A stretch of DNA of 19,119 nucleotides from a virus. Both the position numbers and the translations under genes were made by a program. The notes beneath the pieces are model-generated. The model did no database searches, was not told the origin of the DNA, and saw only the letters and a program-made list of their open reading frames with translations. Positions 1,011 through 15,348 of the stretch are shown here, piece after piece. Position 1 is the first letter of the stretch. Every line of letters begins with the position of its first letter. The stretch lies in the UHGV virus genome UHGV-0349885; one strand, 5' to 3'.

Positions 1011-1559
1011 ATGAAGGTTAATAAAAAGAGGCTTGCCGAAATTTTCAACGTGGACCCGCGGACGATTGAACGCTGGCAGTCTCAGGGACTCCCTTGCGCC
1101 TCCAAAGGTAGTAAGGGCATTGAATCTGTATTTGATACTGCCATGGCAATTCAGTGGTATGCGCAGAGGGAAACTGATATCGAAAACGAAAAGCTCCGCA
1201 AAGAACTGGACGATTTGCGTGCGGCAGCGGAGTCAGATTTACAACCCGGCACCATTGACTATGAACGCTACCGGCTCACAAAAGCGCAGGCAGATGCGCA
1301 GGAACTGAAAAATGCCCGTGAAGACGGAGTAGTGCTGGAAACTGAACTGTTTACCTTCATTCTGCAACGTGTGGCACAGGAGATTTCGGGGATACTTGTG
1401 CGTGTGCCGTTGACATTACAGCGTAAATATCCGGACATTTCACCATCACACCTTGATGTGGTGAAAACTGAAATCGCGAAAGCCTCCAATGTTTCAGCTA
1501 AGGCCGGTGAAAACGTGGGCGGGTGGATCGATGATTTCAGACGCGCAGAAGGCAGCTAA
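1011..1559 (+). CDS. Nu1: Terminase small subunit, lambda Nu1-like
   Basis: 182 aa; N-terminus [28 protein letters not shown] closely matches the lambda Nu1 N-terminal winged-HTH (MEVNKKQLADIFGASIRTIQNWQEQGMP, from memory); directly downstream of cos; 3' end overlaps the next gene's start as in lambda. Confidence 0.9.
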
Positions 1560-2513
1560 TGCAGCCGGTGCGATAGCAACAGGGCTTTTATCTCTCATTA
1601 TTCCTGTTCCACTGACGACAGTTCAGTGGGCCAATAAACATTATTACCTTCCTAAAGAGTCGTCTTATACCCCGGGGCGGTGGGAAACACTGCCGTTTCA
1701 GGTTGGCATCATGAACTGTATGGGCAACGATTTGATTCGCACTGTTAACCTGATTAAATCTGCCCGTGTTGGTTATACAAAGATGTTGCTGGGAGTGGAG
1801 GCTTATTTTATTGAGCATAAATCACGCAACAGCCTTCTTTTTCAGCCCACGGACTCAGCTGCTGAAGATTTTATGAAATCTCATGTTGAGCCAACGATAA
1901 GGGAGGTTCCTGCGTTGCTGGAGCTGGCTCCATGGTTCGGAAGAAAACACCGCGATAATACGCTCACCCTGAAGCGTTTTTCCTCCGGTGTGGGTTTCTG
2001 GTGTCTGGGGGGAGCGGCAGCAAAAAACTACCGTGAAAAATCCGTGGATGTGGTCTGTTATGACGAGCTTTCCTCGTTCGAACCGGATGTTGAAAAAGAG
2101 GGTTCGCCAACCCTGCTGGGGGATAAACGTATTGAGGGCTCTGTATGGCCCAAATCCATTCGCGGCTCGACTCCTAAAATCAAAGGCTCCTGCCAGATCG
2201 AAAAAGCCGCTAACGAGTCGGCACACTTCATGCGTTTTTATGTGCCCTGTCCGCACTGTGGGGAGGAGCAGTATCTGAAATTTGGCGATGAGTCCACGCC
2301 TTTTGGGCTTAAATGGGAGAAGGACAGCCCCGAAAGCGTTTTCTACCTCTGTGAGCATCATGGCTGCGTGATCCATCAGTCTGAACTGGACCAGAGTAAC
2401 GGGCGGTGGATCTGTGAAAACACGGGCATGTGGACCCGTGACGGCCTGACGTTTTTCAGCGCTGCGGGTAATGAAATTCCGCCGCCGCGCTCCATCACTT
2501 TCCATATCTGGAC
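1531..2513 (+). CDS. A: Terminase large subunit (lambda gpA-like), N-terminal 327 codons, interrupted by insertion; in the integrated state the frame reads on into element DNA to a stop at 2757
   Basis: ATG at 1531 overlapping the Nu1 end; strong similarity to lambda gpA ([20 protein letters not shown], Walker-A-like [41 protein letters not shown]); similarity stops at HIWT (about 2513) where the integrase-proximal element sequence begins. Confidence 0.85.
2503..2513 (+). repeat. attL core: left copy of 11-bp direct repeat CATATCTGGAC
   Basis: Identical 11-mer at 14392-14402; both copies encode H-I-W-T of the terminase at the points where terminase homology breaks and resumes. Confidence 0.75.
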
Positions 2514-2683
2514 TATGCAATCATTATCTTTCATTGCCGTTTCTTTTTGTGTTTCTTCTTATTCAATAAGTTGCGGTTTCTTCAATTGTGTGCATTGTTC
2601 CTTTTTTTTCGCTTTTTTATCGCCAGTATTCTGGCAAAAGGAACCAGCGCATGGACTAGAAAAATTTGTATTGGAGTGCTTGT

Positions 2684-3916
2684 ATGTCGGTGAAGCCTCT
2701 TACTGCATCAGAGGTAAAAAGCGCCAGGCCACGAGAGAAAGATTACGCTCTGTATGATGGGTTTGGGCTTTTGTTTTATGTGTCAAAAGCCGGTAGTAAA
2801 TCGTGGCGTTTTCGTTATGTACAACCTTTTACGAAGAAGCGGCAAACATACACTATAGGGCGATACCCGGATTTCACACTGGTTGAAGCCAGAGAAGAAC
2901 GCGATAAGCTGCGCAGATTGCTGGCACGGGATATAGATCCGTTATCATACCGGGCAGAAAAACGACTTGAGGCTAAAAGAAAGCACTTACAGACGTTTGG
3001 TGCTATTGCAATTGAATGGTTTAATTTTAAGAAAAAAGGTGATTTGCGGCTGTCGACTTTACAAACAATAGAGGAATTATTGAACAGACATATAATTCCT
3101 GTATTCGGAAATATGTACTTACATGATATGACCGCGCCAGTGGTTATTTCACTGCTTAATCAATTTTCTGATCGTAATGCTGTACTGGCTAAAATGCTGT
3201 CAAAAATTAATGAAATAATGAATTACTGTGTTAACTCTGGAGTGATTAAAAACAATCCGCTATCAACAATAAGAAAGGCATTTGTAATAAAAAAAGATAC
3301 ACCATTAAAAGCATTACCAGTTGAACGGTTATCAGAATTTTTGAACTGGTGGGAGACCACAAGTAATATCTCTATGAGATGCTCTCTTTTGTTCCAGATT
3401 GTCACTATGGTAAGACCATGTGAAGCAAGGGAGGCAAAATGGGAAGAAATTGATTTAGAAAATTGTATCTGGACAATTCCCCCTGAAAGAATGAAGTGTG
3501 GACGTGAACACGTAGTTCCGCTTTCACGGCAAGCCGTGGATATTTTAAGTGAAATGAATAAAATAAAATGTGGTAGCTATATATTTTTTTCTCCAAAGAA
3601 TCCGGGGAAAGCTATATCAAGCGTGTTGCGTCATAAGTGTTTCAGAGAGGGGCCATTTTATGGTGTTGCAACTGCTCACGGATTCCGGGCTATGTGGAGT
3701 ACGTTACTCAATGAAGAAGGGTTTAACCCAGATGTTATTGAGGCAGCATTGGCCCATAAAAGCGGCGATGCTATTCGTGATATTTATAATCGCTCAAAAT
3801 ATTTTGAGCAACGTAAGATCATGATGCAATGGATTGGTGATTTTGTTGATGATGCCAGAAAGGGAATTATCCGCCGTTCTGGTGGTCATCAGGGGCTAAA
3901 AGTAGTGAATATGTGA
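2684..3916 (+). CDS. int: Tyrosine site-specific integrase, P4-type
   Basis: ATG at 2684 with GGAG 8 nt upstream (ORF track begins at an upstream TTG, 2666). N-terminus MSVKPLTASEVKSARPREKDYALYDGFGLLFYVSKAGSKSWRFRY matches the P4-integrase N-terminal arm-binding domain; C-terminal region has HGFRAMW and RDIYNRSKY consistent with catalytic His/Arg/Tyr. Confidence 0.9.
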   Translation: MSVKPLTASEVKSARPREKDYALYDGFGLLFYVSKAGSKSWRFRYVQPFTKKRQTYTIGRYPDFTLVEAREERDKLRRLLARDIDPLSYRAEKRLEAKRKHLQTFGAIAIEWFNFKKKGDLRLSTLQTIEELLNRHIIPVFGNMYLHDMTAPVVISLLNQFSDRNAVLAKMLSKINEIMNYCVNSGVIKNNPLSTIRKAFVIKKDTPLKALPVERLSEFLNWWETTSNISMRCSLLFQIVTMVRPCEAREAKWEEIDLENCIWTIPPERMKCGREHVVPLSRQAVDILSEMNKIKCGSYIFFSPKNPGKAISSVLRHKCFREGPFYGVATAHGFRAMWSTLLNEEGFNPDVIEAALAHKSGDAIRDIYNRSKYFEQRKIMMQWIGDFVDDARKGIIRRSGGHQGLKVVNM

Positions 3917-3922
3917 GGCAAT

Positions 3923-4132
3923 ATGAGCACTAACGGCAATATTCTATTTACCAAAGACGTGATGGCAGAGCTTCGCTACGGTGCAATGAGTGCGTTTTAC
4001 GCTTTCATGAACGATGAAAAAAATAAATTTCCACGCCCCTTTAAGATTGGGCGACGCAACGCATGGCATCGTGATGATGTTGCATCGTGGCTGGAAAGAC
4101 AACGAAAACAAGCTAATGAATATCGTCAATGA
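3923..4132 (+). CDS. alpA: AlpA/Xis-family small DNA-binding protein (putative excisionase / transcriptional regulator)
   Basis: 69 aa, immediately after int, GAGG Shine-Dalgarno; sequence FTKDVMAELRYGAMSAFYAFMNDEKNKFPRPFKIGRRNAWHRDDVASWLE fits the AlpA/Vis/Xis HTH pattern; followed by a terminator. Confidence 0.7.
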   Translation: MSTNGNILFTKDVMAELRYGAMSAFYAFMNDEKNKFPRPFKIGRRNAWHRDDVASWLERQRKQANEYRQ

Positions 4133-4140
4133 TTGATATA

Positions 4141-4164
4141 CCCCGCGCAATGCGGGGTTTTTTG
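4141..4164 (+). terminator. Rho-independent terminator after alpA
   Basis: Hairpin CCCCGC-gcaat-GCGGGG (4141-4157) followed by TTTTTT. Confidence 0.7.
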
Positions 4165-4178
4165 TATATGAGGTAAAA

Positions 4179-4760
4179 ATGATGAATAAAAATATTGCCG
4201 TGACGGGCAAGGGTGACGCACGTCATGTGAAAAAAGTCTGTGATATTCGTGATCTGGTCGTTCTGCGCTTTGATGGCGTGAGCGTTCGCGTGGTGTATCT
4301 GAACGGCGATCCGTGGTTTGTTGCAAAGGATGTCTGCGCTGCGCTGGAACTGACCAATTCGCGTACGGCGTTGCAGATGCTTGATGATGATGAAAAGGGA
4401 GTAAATTTAACTTACACCCCCGGAGGAAATCAGAATATGAGCATTATCTCTGAGTCAGGTTTCTACAAACTAATAGTCCGCAGCCGCAAAGCAACGACGC
4501 CTGGCACATTTGCTCATCGTTTTAGTAACTGGGTATTCAGAAATGTGATACCGGGTATCAGAAAAACGGGGGCTTATGGTATCCCGTGGGGTGCATTACA
4601 GGATTTTTCCCGCCGCAAAGAGCAATATCAGATAAGTGCCAGCGAGAAGGGGAGGGCGCTACAGGCATGTAAGCGCAAAAAACGTGAACTGGAGGAAGAA
4701 GAAAAAAGGCTGATACGTGAATATCAGCCTGAGTTTTACTTTGGTGAGCGTATTCAGTAA
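4179..4760 (+). CDS. BRO-N / KilA-N domain protein (phage antirepressor-like)
   Basis: 193 aa; N-terminal region LRFDGVSVRVVYLNGDPWFVAKDVCAALELTNSRTALQMLDDDEKG ... IRKTGAY matches the conserved BRO-N antirepressor motif; GAGG SD; charged coiled-coil-like C-terminus. Confidence 0.75.
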   Translation: MMNKNIAVTGKGDARHVKKVCDIRDLVVLRFDGVSVRVVYLNGDPWFVAKDVCAALELTNSRTALQMLDDDEKGVNLTYTPGGNQNMSIISESGFYKLIVRSRKATTPGTFAHRFSNWVFRNVIPGIRKTGAYGIPWGALQDFSRRKEQYQISASEKGRALQACKRKKRELEEEEKRLIREYQPEFYFGERIQ

Positions 4761-5040
4761 CCACACGCGGTGCTGATTATACGGTACATCGTGTTAACCG
4801 AGAAGCTACCCACCAGCAAGGCAAAATCTTCTGCTAAAAAATGACATATGACCAGTCGTCCAGAAAGCATGAAATTTTACAAAAATGGAAAATGAAGATT
4901 TTTATTGTGCTAGTGGGTAAAAACAAAAAGCGCCCCGTTGCCGGAGCGCCCTTGCGAACAATTAACCTGCTGCGAAAAAATTGGATCAGTGCAAGGAAAT
5001 TATATCAACTGTGTGAAGAAGCGCCACAATTGCCGGATAA

Positions 5041-5073
5041 CAGGCAAAGAAAAGGCCACCTGTCACGGTGGCC
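5041..5073 (-). terminator. Minus-strand rho-independent terminator
   Basis: Perfect 7-bp stem GGCCACC/GGTGGCC (5054-5060 / 5067-5073) with 6-nt loop; on the minus strand it is followed by TTTTCTTTG; it lies downstream of the minus-strand regulator gene. Confidence 0.5.
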
Positions 5074-5392
5074 CTTCAACACAAATTGCGCGTTATCCCC
5101 AACGCATGAGCATCGCCAACAATGCCATATTTGCGGCTGGTGGGCAAAGCCTGAGCGATCCTGTGATTACAGGAACTACGGCATTGTCTCGGTTAGGTAG
5201 TGCTCAACTTTTTTTCAACTCTACATCGCAAGCACGCCGTAATAAATCGCCCTTATCGTTTGAGCAAAGACTATTTTTCTCAAAGCATGATATTAAGAGA
5301 AAGATTGTGATAATTAAAGCAACCATCATTGGTACATGTTTTTTTAATTTTAACATCTTTTACTCCTATGATTATCGCCATCGTTCTTCATG

Positions 5393-5590
5393 TTATGACG
5401 TGATTAATGATTTCTCGGATTCACTGGCCTTGCGCCGCTGGCGATATTCAACTTCTCGTTTTAATGCCGCAGTAACAAATTGCCCCGTACTTTCGCCAGG
5501 CATTTTTACCGCCTCAACATTGTTCATAACTTCATGCGGAACCCTTGCCGCAACGGTTTGTGATTTTGCGTTTACTGCTTTTGTCGCCAT
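5393..5590 (-). CDS. Small putative DNA-binding regulator (candidate repressor of the element; possibly ribbon-helix-helix-like)
   Basis: 65 aa, ATG at 5590 with GAGGGG SD; divergently oriented from the operator/promoter cluster at 5641-5692. Fold assignment is by eye only. Confidence 0.5.
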   Translation of the reverse strand: MATKAVNAKSQTVAARVPHEVMNNVEAVKMPGESTGQFVTAALKREVEYRQRRKASESEKSLITS

Positions 5591-5640
5591 GTGGTGTACC
5601 CCTCATAAAAAACAAATGCAGTATGCAGGAAAAAAAATAA

Positions 5641-5692
5641 GTGTTCAACACTTGACGTGTTTAACACCTGGGTTTAAATTGGTGTTCAACAC
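5641..5692. promoter_or_regulatory. Divergent promoter/operator region: three palindromic operators GTGTTCAACAC (5641-5651), GTGTTTAACAC (5657-5667), GTGTTCAACAC (5682-5692) overlapping a rightward sigma70-like promoter (-35 TTGACG 5652-5657, 17-bp spacer, -10 TAAATT 5675-5680)
   Basis: Three copies of an 11-bp perfect palindrome GTGTT-N-AACAC seen directly; they sit between the minus-strand regulator gene and the plus-strand early operon. Confidence 0.6.
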
Positions 5693-5789
5693 CTTGTTGG
5701 CGCAAGGTGCAGAAACGACGAAACCCGGCAGTGCGCTAACACTAACCGGGCTTCTAACCACCAACGATAGCGAAAGTATCGAGGCAGCT

Positions 5790-5993
5790 ATGAGAAATCA
5801 TACCACACACCCGCAAGGGCGGGACTCGCACGACCTGAATAAATACATCTGGCGTTTTATCGCCCTGAGCACGGCACAACCGCGCGTGATTACCATCGAG
5901 GCCACCAGCGAACAGGAAGCGCGTCAGCAATCTCCGGCTGGCTGCGTGATGGTATTCGCTGCCCGTATTCGCCAGGGGTCACATCATGCGTAA
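5790..5993 (+). CDS. Small early protein, Icd-like (P4 host cell-division inhibitor family) by motif
   Basis: ATG 5790 with GAGG SD 5 nt upstream; 67 aa; motif YIWRFIALS...RVITIEATSEQEARQQ...VFAARIRQG recalled as characteristic of Icd-like proteins of P4-type elements. Family assignment from memory only. Confidence 0.5.
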   Translation: MRNHTTHPQGRDSHDLNKYIWRFIALSTAQPRVITIEATSEQEARQQSPAGCVMVFAARIRQGSHHA

Positions 5994-6447
5994 AAACCGC
6001 TTGCAAAAAATTATCACGGGGCTGTATGCTTCCCCCGTCGCCCACATGGCGACCGGGTTTGACAGCCTGAATACATCTGGCGGACAGCCGCCCACATCCG
6101 ATAAGCGGTTTTTTTGTGTCCGTAAACCTACCCATACCCGCATTATGGCGGGGCGTAACGGGGGAGCCTTTGTGCTCGCTGGTTTCCAGATGACCAGTCT
6201 GTCAACCCTGTTACGTCTCGCCACCATGTTTGACAGCGTAGTAGCGAGACTCCTTAAAATTCATCTGGGAGCCTTTCACATGGCTGTATCCGCACGCCCT
6301 TATTTTGTCTGGCGCTTTATGCAGTGCCTGACAGACAGCATTGCAATATTCACCGTTACCGCTGCCACTGAGCGCGAAGCACGTGCACAGCTGCCGCACG
6401 CACATCTGATTTTTGTCGCCCGTATTCGTCAGGGGGTAGGCTTATGA
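5986..6447 (+). CDS. Icd/Ash-like paralog (153 aa) carrying the same C-terminal motif
   Basis: Start overlaps the previous stop; C-terminus YFVWRFMQCLTDSIAIFTVTAATEREARAQLPHAHLIFVARIRQG is a clear paralog of the 5790-5993 product. Confidence 0.5.
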   Translation: MRKNRLQKIITGLYASPVAHMATGFDSLNTSGGQPPTSDKRFFCVRKPTHTRIMAGRNGGAFVLAGFQMTSLSTLLRLATMFDSVVARLLKIHLGAFHMAVSARPYFVWRFMQCLTDSIAIFTVTAATEREARAQLPHAHLIFVARIRQGVGL

Positions 6448-6677
6448 GTCAGGAAATCACACTACAACAGGCAGCAGAACGCGCCCACCAAATCGAAGTT
6501 ATTTGCGCACTGGCAGAGGATTACCCTGGCATGATGACCGACAGCGAATCAGGGGCAATCATCGGCTTACTTAAACGCCTTAGCGGTGAGGTCTGCGTAT
6601 TCCTGAGCGATGAACAGGAAAGAAGAACGCTTATTTCTAACGAAAAAAAATGCGGAGGGGTACACCATGTGCAATAA
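6444..6677 (+). CDS. Hypothetical small protein (77 aa), translationally coupled in early operon
   Basis: ATG overlaps the preceding stop (ATGA); GGGGG SD upstream; no recognisable family. Confidence 0.5.
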   Translation: MSQEITLQQAAERAHQIEVICALAEDYPGMMTDSESGAIIGLLKRLSGEVCVFLSDEQERRTLISNEKKCGGVHHVQ

Positions 6678-6888
6678 CATCCGTCCGGACGCAGCAGCCG
6701 CCGCGCTCACTACGCTGATGCACGCGCTTATCGATATTGAATGCACTGCAGAGCTTGCGCAGGGAGAAGAACAGAAAGACCGGACACAGTTCGCCCTGGA
6801 ATGTATCCGATACATCGCAACGCGGTCGCTGAATGAAGCTAAAAATATTCTTGTTGCTGATTGTGAAAATGGGGGGGGTTATGCGTGA
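6667..6888 (+). CDS. Hypothetical small protein (73 aa from ATG 6667; ORF track offers an upstream start at 6610)
   Basis: Strong SD GGAGGGG 7 nt upstream of ATG 6667; stop overlaps the next start in the 8-mer ATGCGTGA. Confidence 0.45.
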   Translation: MCNNIRPDAAAAALTTLMHALIDIECTAELAQGEEQKDRTQFALECIRYIATRSLNEAKNILVADCENGGGYA

Positions 6889-7114
6889 TGATCGTTTTAA
6901 TTCCCTGAAACAGGAATTTTCCGGCGTTCCTGATGATGCGGCTGATGCGCTTTCGTCAATGCCAGAACTTATTAGAGCGGCTTTTTTCTTACTTTCCACG
7001 AGAGAATATAAATCAACGGGGCTTGATGTACTGAATATCGCCGCCGATTATGCGGAATATGTGGCAGAGGCGCGTTATAGAAGAAAATTTCCTGAGGATG
7101 TAAGCCATGCGTGA
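6881..7114 (+). CDS. Hypothetical small protein (77 aa, MRDDRFNSLKQEF...)
   Basis: ATG 6881 inside the overlap 8-mer ATGCGTGA; acidic and helical; no recognisable family. Confidence 0.45.
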   Translation: MRDDRFNSLKQEFSGVPDDAADALSSMPELIRAAFFLLSTREYKSTGLDVLNIAADYAEYVAEARYRRKFPEDVSHA

Positions 7115-7268
7115 TATTTACCACGAAACAATAGACCGCGCATTTCTTGCACTTTCTCACAGTGAAAACATGCTGGAAATATTGCGCATATGGCTTGAAA
7201 CACTTGGCGACAATGAACGCGACAAACAAAAAATCAAGAATTGCCACGGCATTAATAACGCTTCTTGA
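7107..7268 (+). CDS. Hypothetical small protein (53 aa, MRDIYHETIDRAFLALSHSENMLEILRIWLETLGDNERDKQKIKNCHGINNAS)
   Basis: ATG 7107 again inside an ATGCGTGA overlap with the preceding stop (7112-7114); translated by hand; competes with ORF-track 7147-7341, which needs a TTG start. Confidence 0.3.
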   Translation: MRDIYHETIDRAFLALSHSENMLEILRIWLETLGDNERDKQKIKNCHGINNAS

Positions 7269-7346
7269 GCCTGTAATAATGGAACTGCAAGAAATAGATC
7301 TATTGCACGACAGATATAAAGAACAGCACACCGGAGAATAAAAATA

Positions 7347-7646: not shown

Positions 7647-9397
7647 AACTGGCACCGAACGTAAAACAGCAGTCACGCGGCATAAAACACAAAGAAACAG
7701 AAGTCATTATTTTTGCGGGTAGTGATGCCTGGTCACACGCAAAACAATGGCAGGAACATGACGCGCGTATGGCCGGAGATAATGAGCCTCCTGTGTGGCT
7801 TGGGGAGCAGCAGTTATCCGAACTGGATAAGCTGCAAATTGTGCCGGAAGGCAGAAAATCCGTGCGCATATTCAGGGCCGGATATCTTGCGCCAGTAATG
7901 ATAAAGGCGATTGGTCAGAAGCTGGCGGCGGCAGGCGTACAGGATGCAAATTTTTACCCTGATGGTATGCACGGTCAGAAGGTGGAGAACTGGCGCGAAT
8001 ATCTGGCCCGTGAGCGCCAGAATCTTTCTGATGGTCTGGTCATTGAGCTTCCGGTAAAGCAAAAGGCGCAACTTTCGCAGATGGCGGACAGTGAGCGCGC
8101 GCAGCTGCTTGCCGATCGCTTTGATGGCGTTTGCGTACATCCTGAAAGTGAAATCGTTCACGTATGGCGCGGCGGGGTATGGTGTCCGGTCAGCACAATG
8201 GAACTTAGCCGCGAAATGGTGGCGATCTATTCAGAGCACAGGGCCACTTTCAGCAAGCGCGTAATCAATAACGCCGTGGAAGCGTTAAAAGTTATTGCCG
8301 AACCAATGGGCGAGCCGTCCGGCGATTTGTTGCCGTTCGCCAATGGTGCGCTTGACCTGAAAACGGGGGAATTTTCCCCGCACACGCCGGAGAACTGGAT
8401 CACCACGCACAACGGCATTGAGTACACGCCACCAGCACCAGGGGAGAACATCCGCGATAACGCGCCAAACTTTCATAAATGGCTTGAGCACGCAGCCGGA
8501 AAAGACCCGCGCAAGATGATGCGTATATGTGCCGCGCTGTACATGATTATGGCGAACCGGTACGACTGGCAGATGTTTATTGAGGCCACCGGAGACGGCG
8601 GGAGCGGTAAAAGTACATTCACACACATAGCCAGCCTTCTGGCAGGGAAACAGAACACGGTAAGCGCTGAAATGACATCGCTTGATGATGCTGGTGGACG
8701 TGCGCAGGTTGTCGGGAGTCGTCTTATCGTCCTGGCTGACCAGCCGAAATATACAGGCGAAGGAACGGGCATCAAGAAAATCACGGGCGGTGACCCCGTG
8801 GAAATTAACCCGAAATACGAAAAGCGTTTCACGGCGGTAATCAGGGCGGTGGTGCTGGCGACCAACAATAACCCGATGATATTCACCGAACGGGCCGGAG
8901 GTGTGGCACGTCGTCGCGTGATTTTCCGTTTCGACAATATCGTCAGTGAGGCCGAAAAAGACAGGGAGCTACCGGAAAAGATCGCGGCTGAAATCCCTGT
9001 CATTATCCGCCGATTGCTGGCGAACTTTACCGACCCTGAGAAGGCACGGGCTTTACTACTGGAACAGCGTGACGGTGATGAAGCTCTGGCAATAAAGCAA
9101 CAGACGGATCCGGTTATTGAGTTTTGCCAGTTCCTGAATTTTCTGGAGGAAGCGCGCGGCCTGATGATGGGGGGCGGTGGCGATTCAGTGAAGTACACGA
9201 CCAGGAACAGCCTTTACCGCGTCTATCTGGCGTTTATGGCATACGCAGGCAGGAGCAAACCGCTAAACGTAAATGACTTTGGCAAGGCTATGAAGCCAGC
9301 CGCGAAAGTTTACGGACATGAATATATTACGCGGAAAGTTAAGGGAGTAACGCAGACTAACGCAATAACAACAGACGATTGCGACGCGTTTTTATAA
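7643..9397 (+). CDS. Replication initiator: DNA primase / SF3-type NTPase (P4-alpha / D5 family C-terminal domain)
   Basis: 584 aa; Walker A EATGDGGSGKSTF, then RLIVLADQPKY and KKITGGDPVEINPKYEKRFTAVIRAVVLATNNNPMIF typical of the phage/plasmid primase P4-family C-terminal domain; the iteron origin lies directly downstream. Confidence 0.85.
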   Translation: MKLAPNVKQQSRGIKHKETEVIIFAGSDAWSHAKQWQEHDARMAGDNEPPVWLGEQQLSELDKLQIVPEGRKSVRIFRAGYLAPVMIKAIGQKLAAAGVQDANFYPDGMHGQKVENWREYLARERQNLSDGLVIELPVKQKAQLSQMADSERAQLLADRFDGVCVHPESEIVHVWRGGVWCPVSTMELSREMVAIYSEHRATFSKRVINNAVEALKVIAEPMGEPSGDLLPFANGALDLKTGEFSPHTPENWITTHNGIEYTPPAPGENIRDNAPNFHKWLEHAAGKDPRKMMRICAALYMIMANRYDWQMFIEATGDGGSGKSTFTHIASLLAGKQNTVSAEMTSLDDAGGRAQVVGSRLIVLADQPKYTGEGTGIKKITGGDPVEINPKYEKRFTAVIRAVVLATNNNPMIFTERAGGVARRRVIFRFDNIVSEAEKDRELPEKIAAEIPVIIRRLLANFTDPEKARALLLEQRDGDEALAIKQQTDPVIEFCQFLNFLEEARGLMMGGGGDSVKYTTRNSLYRVYLAFMAYAGRSKPLNVNDFGKAMKPAAKVYGHEYITRKVKGVTQTNAITTDDCDAFL

Positions 9398-9410
9398 TTT
9401 TTTGCAATGG

Positions 9411-9640
9411 CTGTCTACCCTGTCTACCTGAGTAAAGAAAAATACATTTAATTCAGTATATTAACTTAGGTAGACAGCCTTTTTTCACTGTCTACCTACT
9501 ATCTACCCTCTCTACCTGATTTTACCTGAATCAGACAGGGAGGTAGATACGGGGTAGATAGTGGATAAAAGCACTCTACCCCGCTGAAAGCCGCGCCATT
9601 ACTGGCATGAGAGCCAGTAAGGTAGATAAGGTAGACAAGG
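9411..9640. repeat. Iteron-type replication origin: about 11 copies of TCTACC / GGTAGA (6 forward, 5 reverse) in AT-rich context
   Basis: Forward copies at 9414, 9423, 9491, 9502, 9511, 9575; reverse copies at 9469, 9542, 9553, 9621, 9630; immediately 3' of the primase gene, the usual ori position in PICI/SaPI-like elements. Confidence 0.75.
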
Positions 9641-9685
9641 GGAGGCACAACTCAAAACTTTTTAAACGAGGGGGTAAAAATAAAA

Positions 9686-9943
9686 ATGCGCACATCAGGA
9701 AAACTTAATAATCAGAAGAAGCAGCATAACCGCGCCATTGACCTTACAGAGCACTGGCTGAGAGTGGCGATAAAAATCATCGACCGCAACACGGGGGAAG
9801 GATACGCGAAAGCACATCCCGACCTGATAAGCGCATTCATGACCACGGCGGCGGCAAACTTTGCCACGCTGACAGAACGGGAGATTGCCGAAGCGGAACA
9901 GGTAACAACCATCAACGTTAAAACCGGAGAGGTGGAATCATGA
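9686..9943 (+). CDS. Hypothetical protein (85 aa)
   Basis: ATG 9686 with GAGGGGG SD; stop overlaps the SSB-like start; no recognisable family. Confidence 0.5.
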   Translation: MRTSGKLNNQKKQHNRAIDLTEHWLRVAIKIIDRNTGEGYAKAHPDLISAFMTTAAANFATLTEREIAEAEQVTTINVKTGEVES

Positions 9944-10362
9944 CAGCACAGATAGCAGCTTACGGGCGGCTGGTGGACGACCCGCAGGTAAAACAGACCA
10001 GCAAGGGCACACCAATGACGCTGGCACGTATGGCGGTATCGTTGCCATGTAGTCAGGCGCAGGATGGGCAGGCTACGTTATGGCTATCGGTGATGGCATT
10101 TGGCAGACAGGCCGAAGCACTGGAAAGGCACCGCAAGGGTGAACTCCTGAGCGTGGCGGGTAACATGCAGATCAGCCAGTGGACTGGGCAGAACGGAGAA
10201 ACGCGGCAGGGCTGGCAGGTTATCGCAGACAGTGTAATCAGTGCGCGAACGGCGCGACTGGGCGGCAAAAAAGGTCAACTGGGCCAGGCTACTGACGCGC
10301 TGAACAGGGCAAAACAACAGGCGGGGAATGATGATCCGTACGGGGATAACATACCGTTTTAA
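9940..10362 (+). CDS. ssb: Single-stranded DNA-binding protein (SSB-like)
   Basis: 140 aa; OB-fold-like N-terminal region aligns by eye with E. coli SSB (LVDDPQVKQTSKGTPMTLARMAVS / LWLSVMAFGRQAEALERHRKGELLSVAGNMQISQWT); C-terminal acidic tail ends DDPYGDNIPF, like the SSB DDDIPF tail. Confidence 0.8.
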   Translation: MTAQIAAYGRLVDDPQVKQTSKGTPMTLARMAVSLPCSQAQDGQATLWLSVMAFGRQAEALERHRKGELLSVAGNMQISQWTGQNGETRQGWQVIADSVISARTARLGGKKGQLGQATDALNRAKQQAGNDDPYGDNIPF

Positions 10363-10377
10363 GCGACGAGTGACAGA

Positions 10378-10400
10378 AGCCGGAGCAATCCGGCTTTTTT
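10378..10400 (+). terminator. Rho-independent terminator after ssb
   Basis: Stem GCCGGA/TCCGGC (10379-10384 / 10389-10394), loop GCAA, T-run 10395-10400. Confidence 0.65.
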
Positions 10401-10448
10401 ACGGGTCCTCCTGGCGGGGTGGGCCTGAACACGGGGCGGGAGGCGCGG
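10401..10448 (+). other. Degenerate cos-like remnant (cosQ-like ACGGGTCCTCCTGG ... ACGGGGCGGGAGGCGCGG) lacking an intact cosN 12-mer
   Basis: Aligns with the cosQ/cosN region of the three intact cos sites, but GGGCGGCGACCT is replaced by GGGCGGGAGGCG; preceded by the same terminator-then-cosQ arrangement as at 12818-12857. Confidence 0.4.
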
Positions 10449-10580
10449 AAAAAAGCGCATTTTTGTGATTTTATCGTCATCATCATCATGAGCGTAATTT
10501 ATTGTTTTTAATTGTTTTGATGCAAAAAAGATGATGGTTGTGGTTAATTTTTGTTCGACATCTTTGCAGGCAGATAAAAA

Positions 10581-10616
10581 AGCCCGATAAGGTCAGAGGT
10601 GGCTTATCGGGCTTTT
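10581..10616. terminator. Strong hairpin with flanking A- and T-runs (possible bidirectional terminator)
   Basis: Perfect 11-bp stem AGCCCGATAAG/CTTATCGGGCT (10581-10591 / 10603-10613), preceded by AAAAAA and followed by TTTT. Confidence 0.5.
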
Positions 10617-10692
10617 GCATATGAGGCTTTTTGGTGCACTGACACACATGATCGGGATAATCATTTCATAATTTGCAACACAACTCAATATC

Positions 10693-10742
10693 ATTGCACA
10701 AAATGCAATACTGATTATAATCAGAGCTGGATGAACATCCAG
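10693..10742 (+). promoter_or_regulatory. Candidate promoter of the element capsid operon with three palindromes: ATTGCA-N5-TGCAAT (10693-10709), TGATTATAATCA (10713-10724), CTGGATG-AA-CATCCAG (10727-10742); -35 TTGCAC 10694-10699, -10 TATAAT 10716-10721
   Basis: Consensus -10 with 16-bp spacer seen directly; palindromes overlap the -35, -10 and +1 regions; AAGAGGAA SD and ATG 10778 follow. Confidence 0.4.
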
Positions 10743-10777
10743 TTATGATTTTTTAAGTCAAAGAGGAATTTCTTACT

Positions 10778-10984
10778 ATGGCTGAAGAGAAAAAAGGCGG
10801 TGTTTCGGTGTACATAAGCCCCGACATCGTAAAGGCGCTCAAGGAACGCCACCAGCAGAACGTAAAAGCAGGCATTGCGGCAGGACTTGATCCGCTGGCG
10901 ATGGTTGAGCCGTCAACAGGCTGGCAGGTACGCGCCTATTTACGCGCGGCGCTGGGTATGAATCAGGTTCACGGGGGTGAATAA
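10778..10984 (+). CDS. Hypothetical small protein (68 aa), first gene of the element capsid module
   Basis: ATG 10778 with AAGAGGAA SD; stop overlaps the capsid-gene start (TAATG); no recognisable family. Confidence 0.5.
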   Translation: MAEEKKGGVSVYISPDIVKALKERHQQNVKAGIAAGLDPLAMVEPSTGWQVRAYLRAALGMNQVHGGE

Positions 10985-12039
10985 TGACAGGCAAAGCAAC
11001 GGCACTTAACACTAACCAGCTTTTCATGTACCTGAATCGCGGGGATATTGCGGATTTTAAATTCAACCCTCTGTTTACTACGCTGTTTTTCCCGAACGTG
11101 GCGACATTCAGCACGCAAAACATCATGCTGGATACCCTGGACATTGAAGAAGTCACCATGTCGGCGTTTTGTTCGCCTATGGTTGGCAGCCAGGTACAGC
11201 GCGATAAAGGGTACGAAACCAGCACAATTAAACCTGGCTACATGAAGCCAAAGCACGAAATCGATCCAACAAAAACCATCATGCGCATGGCTGGAGAAGA
11301 TCCGGCACAGCTTAACGACCCTACCTACCGCCGTATGCGCCTGATTACTGGCAACATGCGCCGCCAGGTAAACGCCATTAAAGCGCGCGTGGAATGGCTG
11401 GCGGTGAATGCGATAACGACCGGAAAAAACATCATTGAGGGCGAAGGCATAGAACGCTATGAAATCGACTGGAAAATACCGGAAAACTGCATCATAGAGC
11501 AGGCCAAGGGTAAAAAATGGTCCGAGCAGGATAAAGACATGCACGACCCAATCTATGACATCGAGCTTTATGCTGATCAGGCTGGTTGCCCCGCAAACGT
11601 CATGATTATGGGCGCTGAGGTATGGCGCACGTTACGCAGCTTTAAAAAATTCCGTGAGCTGTACGATCTTTCCCGTGGTTCAGAGTCCGCCGCCGAACTG
11701 GCCTGTAAAAACCTGGGCGAAGTGGTGAGCTTTAAAGGCTATCTGGGCGATATTGCCCTTATCGTCTATTCCGGCAAATACACTGACAGCGACGGCACAG
11801 AAAAATATTTCCTTGAGCCTGATTTGCTGGTTCTGGGCAACACCAACAATAAAGGGCTGGTGGCCTATGGTGCGATTATGGATCAGGACGCAGTAAGAAC
11901 GGGCGCAACGCAAAACATGTTTTACCCGAAAAACTGGATTGGGGACGGCGATCCGGCGATTGAGTACGTGCAGACGCACAGCGCACCGCAGCCGGTTCCG
12001 GCAGATATTCGTAAATTTGTTACCGTCAAAATTGGTTAA
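10984..12039 (+). CDS. Major capsid protein homolog (lambda gpE-like), element-encoded and diverged from the prophage copy
   Basis: 351 aa; matches lambda gpE (from memory) at FKFNPLFTTLFF (lambda FKFDPLFLRLFF), PGYMKPKHEIDP (PGYVKPKHEVNP) and C-terminal YPKNW..GDPA...SAP; N-terminus differs from the prophage gpE start at 19064. Confidence 0.85.
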   Translation: MTGKATALNTNQLFMYLNRGDIADFKFNPLFTTLFFPNVATFSTQNIMLDTLDIEEVTMSAFCSPMVGSQVQRDKGYETSTIKPGYMKPKHEIDPTKTIMRMAGEDPAQLNDPTYRRMRLITGNMRRQVNAIKARVEWLAVNAITTGKNIIEGEGIERYEIDWKIPENCIIEQAKGKKWSEQDKDMHDPIYDIELYADQAGCPANVMIMGAEVWRTLRSFKKFRELYDLSRGSESAAELACKNLGEVVSFKGYLGDIALIVYSGKYTDSDGTEKYFLEPDLLVLGNTNNKGLVAYGAIMDQDAVRTGATQNMFYPKNWIGDGDPAIEYVQTHSAPQPVPADIRKFVTVKIG

Positions 12040-12050
12040 CGGGGGATTCT

Positions 12051-12386
12051 ATGGACACTCCATACATTGAGTTATTTGCAGGCAGTCAGCAGGTCGCCAC
12101 GACGCTGGTACATTTTGCCGCTGATGCTGGCGTTATTCAGGAATTTACCCCGCTGATGCTGGCGGACAATGGCGAGTTTAAGCCGTGGGATGGTAAGGAA
12201 TCTGGCAAGGCTGTTTATCTGACCTCGTACCCTGTGGACACGTCAAAGCAGAAATCAGCACAGTGTTACAAGACGGGGATATTCAATATTGCCGCCGTTA
12301 ACTGGCCTGAGAGCGTCGACACCGATGCGAAAAAATGCGCCGCCTTTGCGGGTTCTGGCGTATCCGTTCAGCCGCTGGCCCGATAA
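12051..12386 (+). CDS. Head decoration protein homolog (lambda gpD-like), element-encoded
   Basis: 111 aa; shares TPLML..WDG..YKTGxF..WPES..KK.AAFAGS with lambda gpD and with the prophage gpD at 18659-19006. Confidence 0.75.
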   Translation: MDTPYIELFAGSQQVATTLVHFAADAGVIQEFTPLMLADNGEFKPWDGKESGKAVYLTSYPVDTSKQKSAQCYKTGIFNIAAVNWPESVDTDAKKCAAFAGSGVSVQPLAR

Positions 12387-12398
12387 GCAGGGGGAACG

Positions 12399-12812
12399 AT
12401 GGCAACGAATGAAAGCATCATGACGCTACCGCTGGCGAGTAAATTTAAAGCCGAAGCGCGGGCAATGGCTGACAGAGGTTTATCAACCTATGAGGCCGTA
12501 TATCAACTAAACAAACTGGAAGAGCAGGACAAGCCGCGCGCTGATGCGATTATGGCGCTTGATGAATCTGGCGACTATCAGCCGCTGTTACGTGCAATGG
12601 CAAACGTGCCTTGTATCGATGTTGGTACGGCTAAAAGCATCCTTAGCATGACCATAGAGCAGGAACGTCCGAAGGTTGCGCCGGAACTTACTGCAGCCTT
12701 TGAAAACTTTATGGACATGCACAGCCCGCAAGCCGTATCAGCTGGCATGGCATACGATGGCAGAAACCAGGGCGATGACGGCGACATCGATCGCATACTG
12801 AAAACCATCTGA
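12399..12812 (+). CDS. Scaffold-like protein (Nu3 / gpC C-terminal-domain homolog), element-encoded; candidate capsid-size-redirecting scaffold
   Basis: 137 aa; C-terminus TAAFENFMDMHSPQAVSAGMAYDGRNQGDDGD parallels the prophage gpC-Nu3 C-terminus TALFEHFMANHSPAAVRGGVSQTSADGDAD; middle region resembles one of the internal repeats of the prophage protein. Confidence 0.6.
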   Translation: MATNESIMTLPLASKFKAEARAMADRGLSTYEAVYQLNKLEEQDKPRADAIMALDESGDYQPLLRAMANVPCIDVGTAKSILSMTIEQERPKVAPELTAAFENFMDMHSPQAVSAGMAYDGRNQGDDGDIDRILKTI

Positions 12813-12817
12813 GACAA

Positions 12818-12842
12818 GGCCGGAGAAATCCGGCTTTTTTTT
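12818..12842 (+). terminator. Rho-independent terminator after the element capsid module
   Basis: Stem GCCGGA/TCCGGC (12819-12824 / 12829-12834), loop GAAA, eight-T run 12835-12842. Confidence 0.65.
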
Positions 12843-12966
12843 ATGGGTCCTTTCCGGCATATGGACCCGTTACGGGGCGGCGACCTCGCGGGTTTTCGCT
12901 ATTTATGACGTTTTTCCGTGAAGGTGACACCACCACCACTTGATTAATATTTAACCATGCGGTTAA
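12843..12966 (+). other. Element cos site A (forward): cosQ-like GGGTCCTTTCCGG 12845-12857, cosN GGGCGGCGACCT 12875-12886, I2-like CGCGGGTTTTCGCTATTTATGA, divergent cosB with TTAACC-atgc-GGTTAA
   Basis: About 75-bp core near-identical to the prophage cos and to lambda cos; flanking cosB differs from the prophage cosB; lies directly upstream of the Nu1-like gene at 12976. Confidence 0.85.
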
Positions 12967-12975
12967 GGTAACATT

Positions 12976-13416
12976 ATGATTGATAAAGCTTGTTTTGTAA
13001 GTCAGCAGGAAATAGCTGAACATTTCAAGGTTAACAGAACCACTATTCGCGCATGGACCAAACAGGGGATGCCGTATCTTAATGCGGATCGCGGAAAGTC
13101 TGGCGGTTATCACATCGGGCATACATTGCTTTGGTCTTCAGGTAAAAGCCGTCTTGAGGCCATCAGATATCACGTAGAAACCAGTGCGCTGGAAAAAATT
13201 ATGTTTGCCAGGCTGCTTTCATCTGAGCGTGACGAGTACTCCAGTGAAGAAACAGAACATCGATTTGATGAAGGTTTGCAGATTTACGGCTATTCACCGG
13301 AAGATGTGAGCAAGGCACGAAATAAAATGGCTGGCTTTCTGGCTGGGTGGCGTCATGCCGTAAGCGTTCGCCGTGCCAGCATGGAACAATCAGTCGTTAC
13401 AGAACAGCAAAGTTAA
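12976..13416 (+). CDS. Terminase-small-subunit-like protein (Nu1 N-terminal wHTH homolog with unrelated C-terminus); candidate packaging-redirection factor
   Basis: 146 aa; N-terminus VSQQEIAEHFKVNRTTIRAWTKQGMPYLNADRGKSGG aligns with prophage Nu1 [34 protein letters not shown]; positioned just 3' of cos-A, as Nu1 is relative to cos. Confidence 0.7.
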   Translation: MIDKACFVSQQEIAEHFKVNRTTIRAWTKQGMPYLNADRGKSGGYHIGHTLLWSSGKSRLEAIRYHVETSALEKIMFARLLSSERDEYSSEETEHRFDEGLQIYGYSPEDVSKARNKMAGFLAGWRHAVSVRRASMEQSVVTEQQS

Positions 13417-13445
13417 AAATCACTTTCTGTTACGCCATCAAATAC

Positions 13446-13597
13446 GCAATACAACAACCACGTATTTTTTTAAAACTATTTGATTCAATTAGCATTTTTT
13501 TATTTTTAGCATCAAAAAAACACTATCAGGTTGTTGTATTGCTCTTTATTTTTACTTAGTTATCAAATGGATATGACAAACAATTAAACAACAACCT
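13446..13597. repeat. Perfect 14-bp inverted repeat GCAATACAACAACC (13446-13459) / GGTTGTTGTATTGC (13529-13542) around a 69-bp AT-rich spacer, plus a third ACAACAACC copy (13589-13597); candidate cosB R-elements of cos-B
   Basis: Repeats read directly from the sequence; they occupy the cosB side of the inverted cos-B in an R3 / AT-rich / R2 / R1-like layout. Confidence 0.5.
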
Positions 13598-13610
13598 CCC
13601 TCTAAAAAAG

Positions 13611-13680
13611 CTCATAAATAGCGAAAAACCGCGAGGTCGCCGCCCCGTAACGGGCCATAATTCCAGGAAGGACCCGACGA
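13611..13680 (-). other. Element cos site B (inverted orientation): cosN reverse-complement AGGTCGCCGCCC at 13634-13645, I2-like 13611-13633, cosQ-like GGAAGGACCC 13666-13675
   Basis: Reverse complement matches the cosQ-cosN-I2 core of cos-A and the prophage cos almost base for base. Confidence 0.8.
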
Positions 13681-13709
13681 CACCAGACTATCAGAGCGAT
13701 GGGGGCACA

Positions 13710-13991
13710 ATGACAGAAGCCGAACTACTGGGATTAATCCGCCGCGTTACCGGAATCAGCCAGCAGCATGACGAACAGGCCACACAGCCGGACAGCGTGA
13801 CAGCCGAAAATTACGCGCGTGTTGTTGCTGAGGTGATGCGCCGTGATGGTATCCAGCTTAATGATATGGATATGCGCAACATACGGATCCGCGTTCTTGA
13901 AATGCTGGCCTACAATCGCCGCGTGGCACTGTATCGTGAAACGGAGAAAATTACGTACCACTGGAAGAAGCCGGAGCGGTTACGGCGTTAA
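13710..13991 (+). CDS. Hypothetical protein (93 aa)
   Basis: ATG 13710; no recognisable family; followed immediately by the GTGAC repeat array. Confidence 0.45.
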   Translation: MTEAELLGLIRRVTGISQQHDEQATQPDSVTAENYARVVAEVMRRDGIQLNDMDMRNIRIRVLEMLAYNRRVALYRETEKITYHWKKPERLRR

Positions 13992-13997
13992 CTTGTG

Positions 13998-14041
13998 GTG
14001 ACATACCGTGACGGGAGTGACAACCAGTGACACACAGTGAC
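13998..14041. repeat. Array of five GTGAC(A) direct repeats at 9-10 bp spacing (starts 13998, 14008, 14017, 14027, 14037)
   Basis: Seen directly; helical phasing suggests same-face binding of one protein; the reverse complement TGTCACT resembles the lambda Int arm-type consensus (AGTCACTAT, from memory). Confidence 0.5.
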
Positions 14042-14391
14042 AAAAAAAGACGGTATTTAAATAGGGTGGGTGTTTAATACCCTAGGGGGATCGGAATCCC
14101 TACACCCCATTGCTTATGAGACCGCATTCCCCGTCAAATTTTTACACCCGCGAAATTAAAAAAATGCGTCACGCTGGTGGGTGTGATGCTGATATGGGGA
14201 TTTCCATAACCGAGATTAAGCAAAGAGCAAACTTGCCCCCTGTAGCCAAACATAGTAACCATCTAAGCCCCTTTTTTATCTTAATTTAGCTGATTTTTCC
14301 GTGTTTATACGGACTAGAATTTGTACCAAACGCAAAAGCGATGTCTTCTTTATTCCTTTAAATTCAATTTATTATCTTGCTTGTTTGCTTT

Positions 14392-14402
14392 CATATCTGG
14401 AC
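14392..14402 (+). repeat. attR core: right copy of 11-bp direct repeat CATATCTGGAC
   Basis: Identical to 2503-2513; terminase homology resumes exactly here (HIWTAYSPFTTWVQIV). Confidence 0.75.
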
Positions 14403-15348
14403 GGCGTACAGTCCGTTCACCACCTGGGTACAGATTGTCTATGACTGGCTGGATGCACTGAAAGATCCCAACGGCCTGAAAACCTTTGTGAACACCACGC
14501 TGGGCGAGACCTGGGAAGAGGCTGTGGGCGAAAAAATCGATCACCAGGTACTGATGGATAAGGTTGTGCGTTACACGGCGGCGGTGCCTGCCCGGGTGGT
14601 TTATCTGACGGCGGGCATTGACTCGCAGCGAAACCGTTTTGAGATGTATGTCTGGGGATGGGCTCCGGGAGAGGAAGCCTTTCTGGTGGATAAAATCATC
14701 ATTATGGGGCGTCCCGATGAGGAAGAGACGCTGTTACGTGTGGATGCGGCGATCAACAAAAAATACCGCCATGCAGACGGAACCGAAATGACTATTTCCC
14801 GTGTCTGCTGGGACATCGGGGGGATCGATGGCGAAATCGTTTATCAGAGGTCAAAAAAACACGGTGTTTTCCGGGTGCTGCCGGTAAAAGGCGCATCTGT
14901 CTATGGCAAGCCGGTGATCACCATGCCAAAAACCCGCAATCAGCGGGGCGTGTATCTGTGTGAAGTGGGGACGGACACCGCAAAAGAAATTCTCTATGCC
15001 CGTATGAAAGCCGATCCCACGCCTGTGGATGAAGCCACGTCGTATGCCATCCGTTTTCCTGATGATCCGGAGATTTTTTCGCAGACAGAGGCGCAGCAAC
15101 TGGTCGCGGAAGAGCTTGTGGAGAAGTGGGAAAAAGGAAAGATGCGTCTGCTGTGGGATAACAAAAAGCGGCGTAACGAAGCGCTGGACTGCCTGGTGTA
15201 TGCCTACGCGGCATTACGTGTGTCCGTGCAACGCTGGCAGCTTGATCTGGCTGTACTGGCAAAATCCCGGGAAGAAGAGACGACCCGGCCAACCCTGAAA
15301 GAACTGGCAGCGAAGCTGTCCGGAGGAGTGAATGGTTACAGTCGCTGA
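14392..15348 (+). CDS. A: Terminase large subunit (lambda gpA-like), C-terminal 315 codons downstream of the insertion; the ORF track extends it to an in-frame TTG at 14377 inside element DNA
   Basis: Colinear with lambda gpA C-terminal half (FHIWTAYSPFTTWVQIV, FVNTTLGETWE, YLTAGIDSQ, RVCWDIGGID, SKKHGVFRVLPVKGASVYGKP, EVGTDTAKE, KRRNEALDCLVYAYAALR); the N part plus this part total 642 codons, against lambda gpA 641 aa. Confidence 0.85.
   Translation, partial: HIWTAYSPFTTWVQIVYDWLDALKDPNGLKTFVNTTLGETWEEAVGEKIDHQVLMDKVVRYTAAVPARVVYLTAGIDSQRNRFEMYVWGWAPGEEAFLVDKIIIMGRPDEEETLLRVDAAINKKYRHADGTEMTISRVCWDIGGIDGEIVYQRSKKHGVFRVLPVKGASVYGKPVITMPKTRNQRGVYLCEVGTDTAKEILYARMKADPTPVDEATSYAIRFPDDPEIFSQTEAQQLVAEELVEKWEKGKMRLLWDNKKRRNEALDCLVYAYAALRVSVQRWQLDLAVLAKSREEETTRPTLKELAAKLSGGVNGYSR

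Follow-up and report, generated by a model that had tools for sequence, protein, structure and literature searches.

Helper-embedded phage-inducible chromosomal islands (HE-PICIs) were described by Tommasini, Mageeney and Williams (2023, NAR Genom Bioinform 5:lqad036; PMC10111431), who reported 491 satellites at 14 sites (15 in another count). These sites lie in nine lambda-cognate late genes, and every satellite has the orientation of the late operon. The clade was delimited by a score of at least 400 bits against the integrase of its founder, Eco567.11capE (11capE) of E. coli NRG857c, and an induction time course of 11capE indicated that the composite prophage excises and replicates first and that the satellite excises later, by which the capsid gene is restored (PMC10111431). 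Two of the published sites are in TerL, A:Terminase_1:132 (aatatcacga) and A:Terminase_1:246 (ttaccaa/tcacgaa). Here we describe the viral genome UHGV-0349885, a stretch of 19,119 nucleotides (hereafter, the window), in which an 11.9-kb element splits the large terminase gene, terL, of a lambdoid prophage. We consider it very probable that this element is a Gram-negative PICI inserted by its own tyrosine integrase at codons 325–328 of the terL of a phage-21-like helper, and that it is a helper-embedded satellite whose excision would restore the gene.

A sequence-only reading of the window had regarded a satellite in its helper's terminase gene as novel. That judgment does not hold, as the two Terminase_1 sites and with them the satellite-in-terL lifestyle itself were published in 2023 (PMC10111431). 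Relative to that paper, the novelty lies in the integrase, which is of a different lineage, and in the site, a conserved position in gpA-type terL that is missing from its list. The case that this site is not among the published mapped late-gene sites is strong but not absolute: neither its core, six 13-mers from its flanks nor the string “GpA” occurred in the supplementary files of the paper, including the complete attL/attR alignments. Literature searches outside subscription-only papers gave no later account of satellites in terminase genes or of further late-gene integrases beyond the 2023 paper and works that cite it.

The Split Large Terminase Gene

The element occupies positions 2514–14402 of the window (11,889 bp, including the right copy of the core) and its precise placement inside terL between perfect 11-bp direct repeats, as first read from the sequence, was confirmed. 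The repeated 11-mer, CATATCTGGAC, has exactly two copies in the window, against a dinucleotide-shuffle expectation of 0.00. The left junction reads …CACTTTCCATATCTGGAC|TATGCAATC… and the right junction …TTGCTTTCATATCTGGAC|GGCGTACAG…. The GC content of the element is 47.7%, as compared to 50.8% and 56.7% in the flanks.

In silico deletion of the element joined positions 1531–2513 and 14403–15348 in frame into an open reading frame (ORF) of 1929 nt, encoding 642 residues with one terminal stop, which is the restored length that had been predicted. The joined TerL aligned with that of phage 21, which also has 642 residues, in one high-scoring segment pair spanning residues 1–642 (98.4% amino acid and 98.1% nucleotide identity), and it gave the same single-piece alignment to the large terminase subunits of several further lambdoid phages. 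The intact phage 21 gene carries CATATCTGGAC at codons 325–328, as expected of an uninterrupted relative, and the reconstructed attB was identical to phage 21 over all 70 nt compared. In the reconstructed junctions, the satellite attP reads …GCTTTCATATCTGGACTATGCAATC… and the attB of the restored terL reads …CTTTCCATATCTGGACGGCGTAC….

Pfam assigned GpA_ATPase to residues 46–293 and GpA_nuclease to residues 323–601 of the joined protein, both well above cutoff. Since the break follows codon 327, it falls at the boundary of the ATPase and nuclease domains, in agreement with the earlier view that it separates a Walker-A-containing N-terminal half from the C-terminal half. With the element in place, the ORF of the terL 5′ part extends 81 unrelated codons into the element to a stop at 2757, overlapping the start of the integrase gene, and nothing resembling a nuclease domain follows 3′ of that stop. 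Because attP brings no replacement sequence, terL would be broken until excision. Judging from these ORFs, the integrated helper can make only a truncated TerL, with the ATPase domain and an 81-residue tail and without the nuclease domain, so that neither helper nor satellite DNA would be cut at cos and packaged. An ATPase-only TerL with a foreign tail (window 1531–2757) could itself be produced in the integrated state.

The Helper Prophage

All 19,119 bases of the window are matched, in the same arrangement and at 99.5% identity, by the closed chromosome of E. coli AREA_492. In this strain the prophage comprises int/xis adjoining potC, exo, regulators, replication genes, Q, lysis genes, terS, the split terL, and full head and tail modules. 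The helper is a complete-looking, phage-21-like lambdoid E. coli prophage. RefSeq labels the terL 5′ part in AREA_492 a partial terminase pseudogene and the 3′ part a partial “terminase gpA endonuclease subunit”.

An assembly artefact, in which terL halves of different prophages had been joined wrongly, found no support, and we give it practically no weight. The 5′ half is further from phage 21 than the 3′ half (32 of 983 versus 5 of 946 nt mismatched), but joining the two halves gives an in-frame, colinear TerL, and the same architecture is found in closed AREA_492 as well as in E. coli TUM9812, an independent case. An assembly chimera was rejected based on these closed genomes.

Comparison of the window with AREA_492 also bears on the mobility of the element. 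The satellite differs at approximately 9 of 11,889 positions, as against 33 in the 500 bp of terL beside attL, and the differences cluster at 2001–2500 (33) and 14501–15000 (15). Because there are so few differences in 11.9 kb and so many in the adjacent 500 bp, these data suggest that one satellite recently moved between two helper alleles. The pattern indicates helper flanks that are mosaic around a conserved satellite.

Recurrence of the terL Insertion

Of 5,426 complete E. coli genomes, two (AREA_492 and TUM9812) had both attL and attR of this subtype of terL junction occupied. Empty sites were represented by the approximately 1,870–1,930 genomes that matched the terL half alone of each junction query, and in at least 13 records common to both junction searches, e.g., strain 120899, the halves abut in an uninterrupted gene. 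The attL junction had no match in a one-genome-per-species collection. The TUM9812 element (locus L004) is a different satellite, with a RepA helicase in place of the primase, which is inserted at the same terL codon and has an integrase 99.5% identical to that of the window. The terL of TUM9812 has diverged (84–90% identity), and the core is CACATCTGGAC in both attL and attR. TUM9812 is an independent second case of insertion in terL.

Approximately 100 complete E. coli genomes have a relative of this integrase gene. Two relatives at about 65% nucleotide identity were inspected, and both were in gpA-type terL 3′ of a DUF1441 TerS. The DUF1441-type terL is broken at the homologous position (…SFWM|EG… versus …FHIWT|AY…), with the core TTGGATG. 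This junction, which we refer to as the Shiga toxin-producing E. coli (STEC) type, was occupied in 57 of the 5,426 genomes, and approximately 470 matched the terL half alone. The same homologous codons (FHIW/SFWM) are used by integrases of 57–73% identity in STEC E. coli, Salmonella, Enterobacter, and Buttiauxella.

One STEC-type element (locus L009, 950–13316, E. coli ERL03-1416) is a sister satellite with a ClpP-MCP fusion gene (MCP, major capsid protein), as in its helper. In ERL03-1416 and a further 56 complete genomes, including many from STEC, the terL of DUF1441-TerS lambdoid prophages is split at the homologous codon. The terL genes split by satellites of this type are annotated as pseudogenes, and their prophages may be scored as defective.

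These occurrences bear on the possibility that the element is a dead end, that is, a single accidental or off-target landing in terL that inactivated the prophage and left a decaying remnant with no regulated excision or coupling. The low count of this exact subtype would fit a dead end, as would the off-target events documented for HE-PICI integrases (PMC10111431). In AREA_492, RefSeq marks a small satellite ORF (~6610–7114) as frameshifted, the helpers of some related composites are truncated (e.g., UK_Dog_Liverpool), and the attP junctions of this and the STEC subtype had no match in IMG/VR viral contigs or JGI metagenome contigs. These three observations would also fit a dead end and, together with two others, they weigh against an excision-restorable satellite: the AlpA-like protein of the element is marginal (20.3 bits versus the 21-bit Pfam cutoff), and no helper or satellite virions were recovered from the 11capE system (PMC10111431), so that the productivity of composites is unproven. 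A dead end is nevertheless difficult to reconcile with the use of the same homologous codon in four genera, where the cores of attL and attR vary together, and with the sister subtype in 57 further E. coli genomes. In addition, the integrase and alpA-like genes and the two cores are intact, the helper is complete-looking, and the satellite is 99.9% conserved between two strains in which the adjacent 500 bp of terL differs by 6.6%. We consider a dead-end insertion improbable, and favor an excision-restorable satellite.

A Possible Second Lineage of Late-Gene Integrases

The integrase of the element has 27% identity to that of 11capE, at 92 bits, far below the 400-bit cutoff of the published clade. 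Its identity to the TUM9812 integrase is given above, and that to the STEC-type terL integrase is 58%. For comparison, the integrase of a portal-embedded PICI of E. coli EC28 scored 471 bits against that of 11capE. The EC28 element (locus L002, 8120–20610) is a related PICI with a published-clade integrase that splits a lambdoid portal gene and leaves terL intact.

In a search of 5.8 billion proteins, none of the 120 best relatives of the integrase (39–94% identity) exceeded 119 bits against the 11capE integrase. For 11 relatives the genomic surroundings were read, 10 on gene-called contigs and one via RefSeq annotation, and 10 of the 11 were in the late region of a prophage, a relative in Pectobacterium having the sole chromosomal context. 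The Enterobacter, Buttiauxella, and Salmonella relatives, on gene-called contigs, were at the same codon of gpA-type terL. Six others were directly 3′ of, and co-oriented with, late genes (Pa193_gp24, a truncated major capsid gene, a sheath-initiator gene, Terminase_2 plus a gap, DUF6651, and a portal gene).

An integrase of 95% identity in three E. coli genomes (CFIAFB20180511, PapRG-04-4, and SA53-3) is located in a phrog_1072 late gene. The core at that site has changed, to TCTCTTTTGGAC in attL and TCTCTTTTGAAC in attR, and the attP arms are near-identical. In CFIAFB20180511 (locus L003, 12076–22894) the phrog_1072 gene, of 183 aa, lies between head-tail joining and baseplate genes in another prophage type. 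Based on these sequences, L003 looks like a recent change of site specificity inside the terL-targeting subclade. In a rough neighbor-joining tree, the terL-targeting integrases formed one subclade with the phrog_1072 switch nested inside it, and a long branch parted the whole group from 11capE and EC28.

On balance, we lean slightly toward the interpretation that these proteins represent a second integrase lineage, outside the published clade, that specialized independently on prophage late genes. Its core subclade would target the F-H-I-W codons of gpA-type terL in Nu1- and DUF1441-type helpers of four genera, and neighboring branches would target capsid, portal, baseplate, and other late genes. 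If this is correct, helper embedding is convergent and far more widespread than the 2023 survey implies, and terL would be a favored choke point because both partners need TerL.

Gene Content of the Satellite

The features of the window are listed in Table 1. The start codon of the integrase gene is 171 bp inside the left junction and its product has a P4-family arm domain, matching the P4-type integrase that had been noted some 170 bp into the element. The integrase, alpA-like, and primase genes of the satellite are all on the plus strand, as are terS and terL, and no plus-strand terminator-like site was found between position 2513 and the start of the integrase gene. The phrog_66 family matched by the AlpA-like protein is labeled “excisionase and transcriptional regulator”. 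The genes fit four zones in order: integrase and AlpA-like protein; Bro-N protein and C4 RNA; DUF4222 protein, primase and single-strand DNA-binding protein (SSB); and MCP, decoration, scaffold-like and TerS-like proteins. By its gene organization, the element is a Gram-negative PICI-type satellite without tail or lysis genes. Its 11.9 kb fall within the approximately 10–15 kb typical of such islands, and the integrase and alpA-like genes lie together at one end.

Table 1. Coordinates of helper and satellite features in the window.
Feature	Position	Strand	Basis or remark
Helper cosN GGGCGGCGACCT, 177 bp 5′ of terS	823–834	+	Exact lambda/phage 21-type 12-mer; position of the annotated phage 21 cos
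Helper small terminase, Nu1-type TerS	1011–1559	+	Pfam Phage_Nu1, E = 3e-81
Helper terL 5′ part, codons 1–327 (ATPase domain) and first two bases of codon 328; left flank of attL	1531–2513	+	Pfam
attL copy of the 11-bp identity block CATATCTGGAC	2503–2513	+	
Candidate arm-type integrase site GGACTAGAA, +145 from attP core center	2653–2661	+	Predicted binding
Tyrosine integrase, 410 aa, P4-family arm domain, co-oriented with terL	2684–3916	+	Pfam Arm-DNA-bind_3, Phage_int_M, Phage_integrase
AlpA-like helix-turn-helix (HTH) protein, probable excisionase/regulator	3923–4132	+	Pfam Phage_AlpA, 20.3 bits; phrog_66, E = 2e-5
Terminator-like hairpin, first one 3′ of the terL 5′ part, after alpA	4140–4158	+	
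Bro-N domain protein (Bro zone)	4179–4760	+	Pfam Bro-N, E = 5e-20; 94% identity to Bro of the EC28 portal-embedded PICI
Icd-like ORF enclosing the immunity RNA and a1b1 target	5986–6447	+	
a1b1 target of the immunity RNA	6024–6073	+	Rfam RF03163, 46.8 bits, at or above gathering score
C4/P4-CI-type immunity RNA	6141–6228	+	Rfam RF01695, 72.6 bits, at or above gathering score
DUF4222 protein (replication zone)	7347–7646	+	Pfam
D5_N/DUF5906 primase (replication zone)	7643–9397	+	Pfam; 98% identity to EC28 PICI primase
SSB	9940–10362	+	Pfam SSB
Lambda E-type MCP (late zone)	10984–12039	+	Pfam Phage_cap_E
D-type decoration protein (late zone)	12051–12386	+	Pfam HDPD
Nu3-like scaffold candidate (late zone)	12399–12812	+	phrog_1999 and C-terminal part of phrog_53
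Satellite cos-like site 1, cosN 12875–12886	12838–12922	+	84% identity to helper cos 786–871
TerS-like/HTH protein, 146 aa	12976–13416	+	phrog_57 terminase small subunit, residues 7–47, E = 4e-8; weak Pfam HTH matches
Satellite cos-like site 2, inverted; cosN complement 13634–13645	13604–13676	−	
Candidate arm-type site GGACTAGAA, −86 from attP core center	14311–14319	+	Predicted binding
attR copy of the 11-bp identity block CATATCTGGAC	14392–14402	+	
Helper terL 3′ part, third base of codon 328, codons 329–642 and stop (nuclease domain)	14403–15348	+	Pfam
Helper W-like head-tail joining gene	15332–15538	+	RefSeq annotation, identical AREA_492 region
Helper portal	15535–17127	+	RefSeq annotation, AREA_492
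Helper S49 protease	17117–18622	+	RefSeq annotation, AREA_492
Helper decoration protein	18659–19006	+	RefSeq annotation, AREA_492

The immunity RNA and its target suggest that the downstream genes of the satellite are under RNA-based immunity control, as has likewise been reported for some PICIs (PMC10111431). The Nu3-like scaffold candidate has 36% identity to the C-terminus of the helper protease, and the TerS-like protein is a candidate packaging-redirection factor. Pfam and PHROG scans of the satellite ORFs found no portal, protease, TerL, tail, or lysis genes. Because cos is common to both partners and the satellite is without terL, portal, and tail genes, we infer that its induction and packaging would depend on the helper phage.

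The replication and late zones (5408–14045) share 97.6% identity with those of a conventional PICI at the chromosomal tqsA locus (locus L021, E. coli VTB96933v), which has another integrase and is present in at least 10 complete genomes. The occurrence of such similar bodies with different integrases implies that the integration module was recently swapped between a chromosomal and a helper-embedded lifestyle on a common PICI backbone.

cos Sites and attP Arms

The satellite has two cos-like blocks of approximately 75 bp each with 84% identity to the helper cos, and their 12-nt cosN, GGGCGGCGACCT, is the same as the helper's. The blocks are inverted and approximately 760 bp apart, on either side of the TerS-like ORF. 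An inverted pair is also present in the tqsA PICI and in the TUM9812 and L003 satellites; it is absent in 11capE and L009, and only one cos is present in the EC28 PICI. The pair might serve for packaging in both directions, as an invertible cassette, or as a decoy.

In the reconstructed attP, the GGACTAGAA repeats, one on each side of the core, are candidate arm-type sites for the integrase. Repeats of CTTTTTTATC are at −126 and +104 from the core, and GGGACTA(G/C)AA, approximately 40–50 bp 5′ of the integrase gene, is kept in loci L009 and L011–L014. The GGACTAGAA repeats are found where the published clade has a doubled TGTATTGC motif, which its authors called unique to that clade (PMC10111431). 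The doubled motif tgTGTATTGCantgTGTATTGCa (published at about −81/+132 of the attP center) had no match with three or fewer mismatches in the whole window. Conversely, a search of the PMC10111431 att alignments for the arm motifs, the L003-type core, and the STEC-type flanks gave nothing relevant, the one match being an unrelated fis terminator.

Proposed Excision-Gated Packaging

Excision, its timing, read-through, and packaging of this element can be proposed by analogy with 11capE and with lambda late regulation. After induction, the composite prophage would leave its potC-adjacent site and replicate, and the satellite would be copied passively. Q-antiterminated late transcription would then pass through terS and the terL 5′ part into the integrase and alpA-like genes, since there is no terminator-like hairpin in between. 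The integrase and AlpA-like factor would recombine the two CATATCTGGAC cores into an 11.9-kb circle and a scar-free wild-type terL. Once TerL is made, the helper terminase would package both genomes, the satellite through its cos sites with the helper-identical cosN, and the capsid, decoration, scaffold-like, and TerS-like proteins of the satellite would probably bias assembly and packaging towards the satellite. The coupling of helper packaging to excision that the sequence-only reading put forward is thus plausible, although its logic had already been proposed, and partly shown by att time courses, for HE-PICIs (PMC10111431), and for the present element excision would follow by analogy.

A different view is that the partners merely reside together without a switch: terL would be a conserved landing pad that ensures a compatible helper, excision would be under the satellite's own regulation (C4-type RNA immunity and derepression by a helper protein) instead of late read-through, and the block to TerL would be a side effect. 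The satellite does have its own immunity RNA and regulators. Moreover, embedding is not needed for its function, since the same body also occurs in tqsA as an ordinary chromosomal PICI, there with a different integrase. However, all embedded relatives examined have the orientation of the late operon, the stretch between the terL 5′ part and the integrase gene has no terminator-like site, and both integrase lineages repeatedly choose late genes and not any conserved prophage gene. We consider co-residence without a switch unlikely, and prefer excision coupled to the late program of the helper.

If our interpretation is correct, helper-embedded satellites tie satellite and helper in cis, with the helper late program incomplete until the satellite leaves. 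The published survey would underestimate helper embedding because it was seeded with one integrase, and late-gene tropism probably arose more than once, or predates the published clade. Many “pseudogenized” prophage terminase genes in E. coli, including STEC, and Salmonella may be conditionally intact and not dead, which would affect the scoring of prophages as defective. As phage 21 terminase and cos are classical genetics, the present composite offers a tractable test system for excision-gated packaging.

Comparison with Known Systems

The element resembles HE-PICIs in that its target gene is disrupted and its attP carries no replacement sequence. The four zones are also in the same order (integrase and AlpA, Bro and C4-type RNA, primase and SSB, captured late genes), cos is common to satellite and helper, and TerL is already a published target. 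The body proteins are homologous (primase 43–98%, SSB 79–84%, and MCP 55% identity), with the primase and SSB 98% and 84% identical to those of the EC28 portal-embedded PICI and the MCP 55% identical to that of 11capE. The differences are in the integrase, as detailed above, and in the target, which is a gpA-type TerL (GpA_ATPase/GpA_nuclease) and not a Terminase_1 TerL.

Gram-negative PICIs reportedly redirect helper packaging, as described by Fillol-Salom et al. The element is similar to these islands, of which EcCICFT073 is a model named in PMC10111431, in size, in its int-alpA-primase-capsid layout, in cos packaging by a lambdoid helper, and in having a TerS-like factor beside cos. In contrast, those islands are in chromosomal genes and contact the helper in trans, whereas the element in the window is inside its helper and disrupts a gene that both need. 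A capsid-forming PICI was rejected, as the element has MCP, decoration, scaffold-like, and TerS-like genes alone and no portal, protease, or TerL, i.e., no complete head module.

With satellite P4 the element has in common the P4-family integrase arm domain, an Icd-like ORF, a C4/CI-type immunity RNA, and a D5-type primase. It differs in that its helper is lambdoid and not P2-like and its integration site is not a tRNA gene. A P4-like satellite was rejected, as the helper is lambdoid and the Pfam and PHROG scans gave no capsid-size or Psu/Sid/Delta-type matches.

Sporulation skin elements and the Listeria comK phage are examples of genes restored by excision. In such systems, as proposed for this locus, a gene is interrupted by a mobile element and made whole again when the element excises precisely at a defined stage, and regulated gene integrity of this kind is discussed in PMC10111431. 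The locus differs in that the split gene is that of the helper phage, and the arrangement presumably serves the satellite and not the cell.

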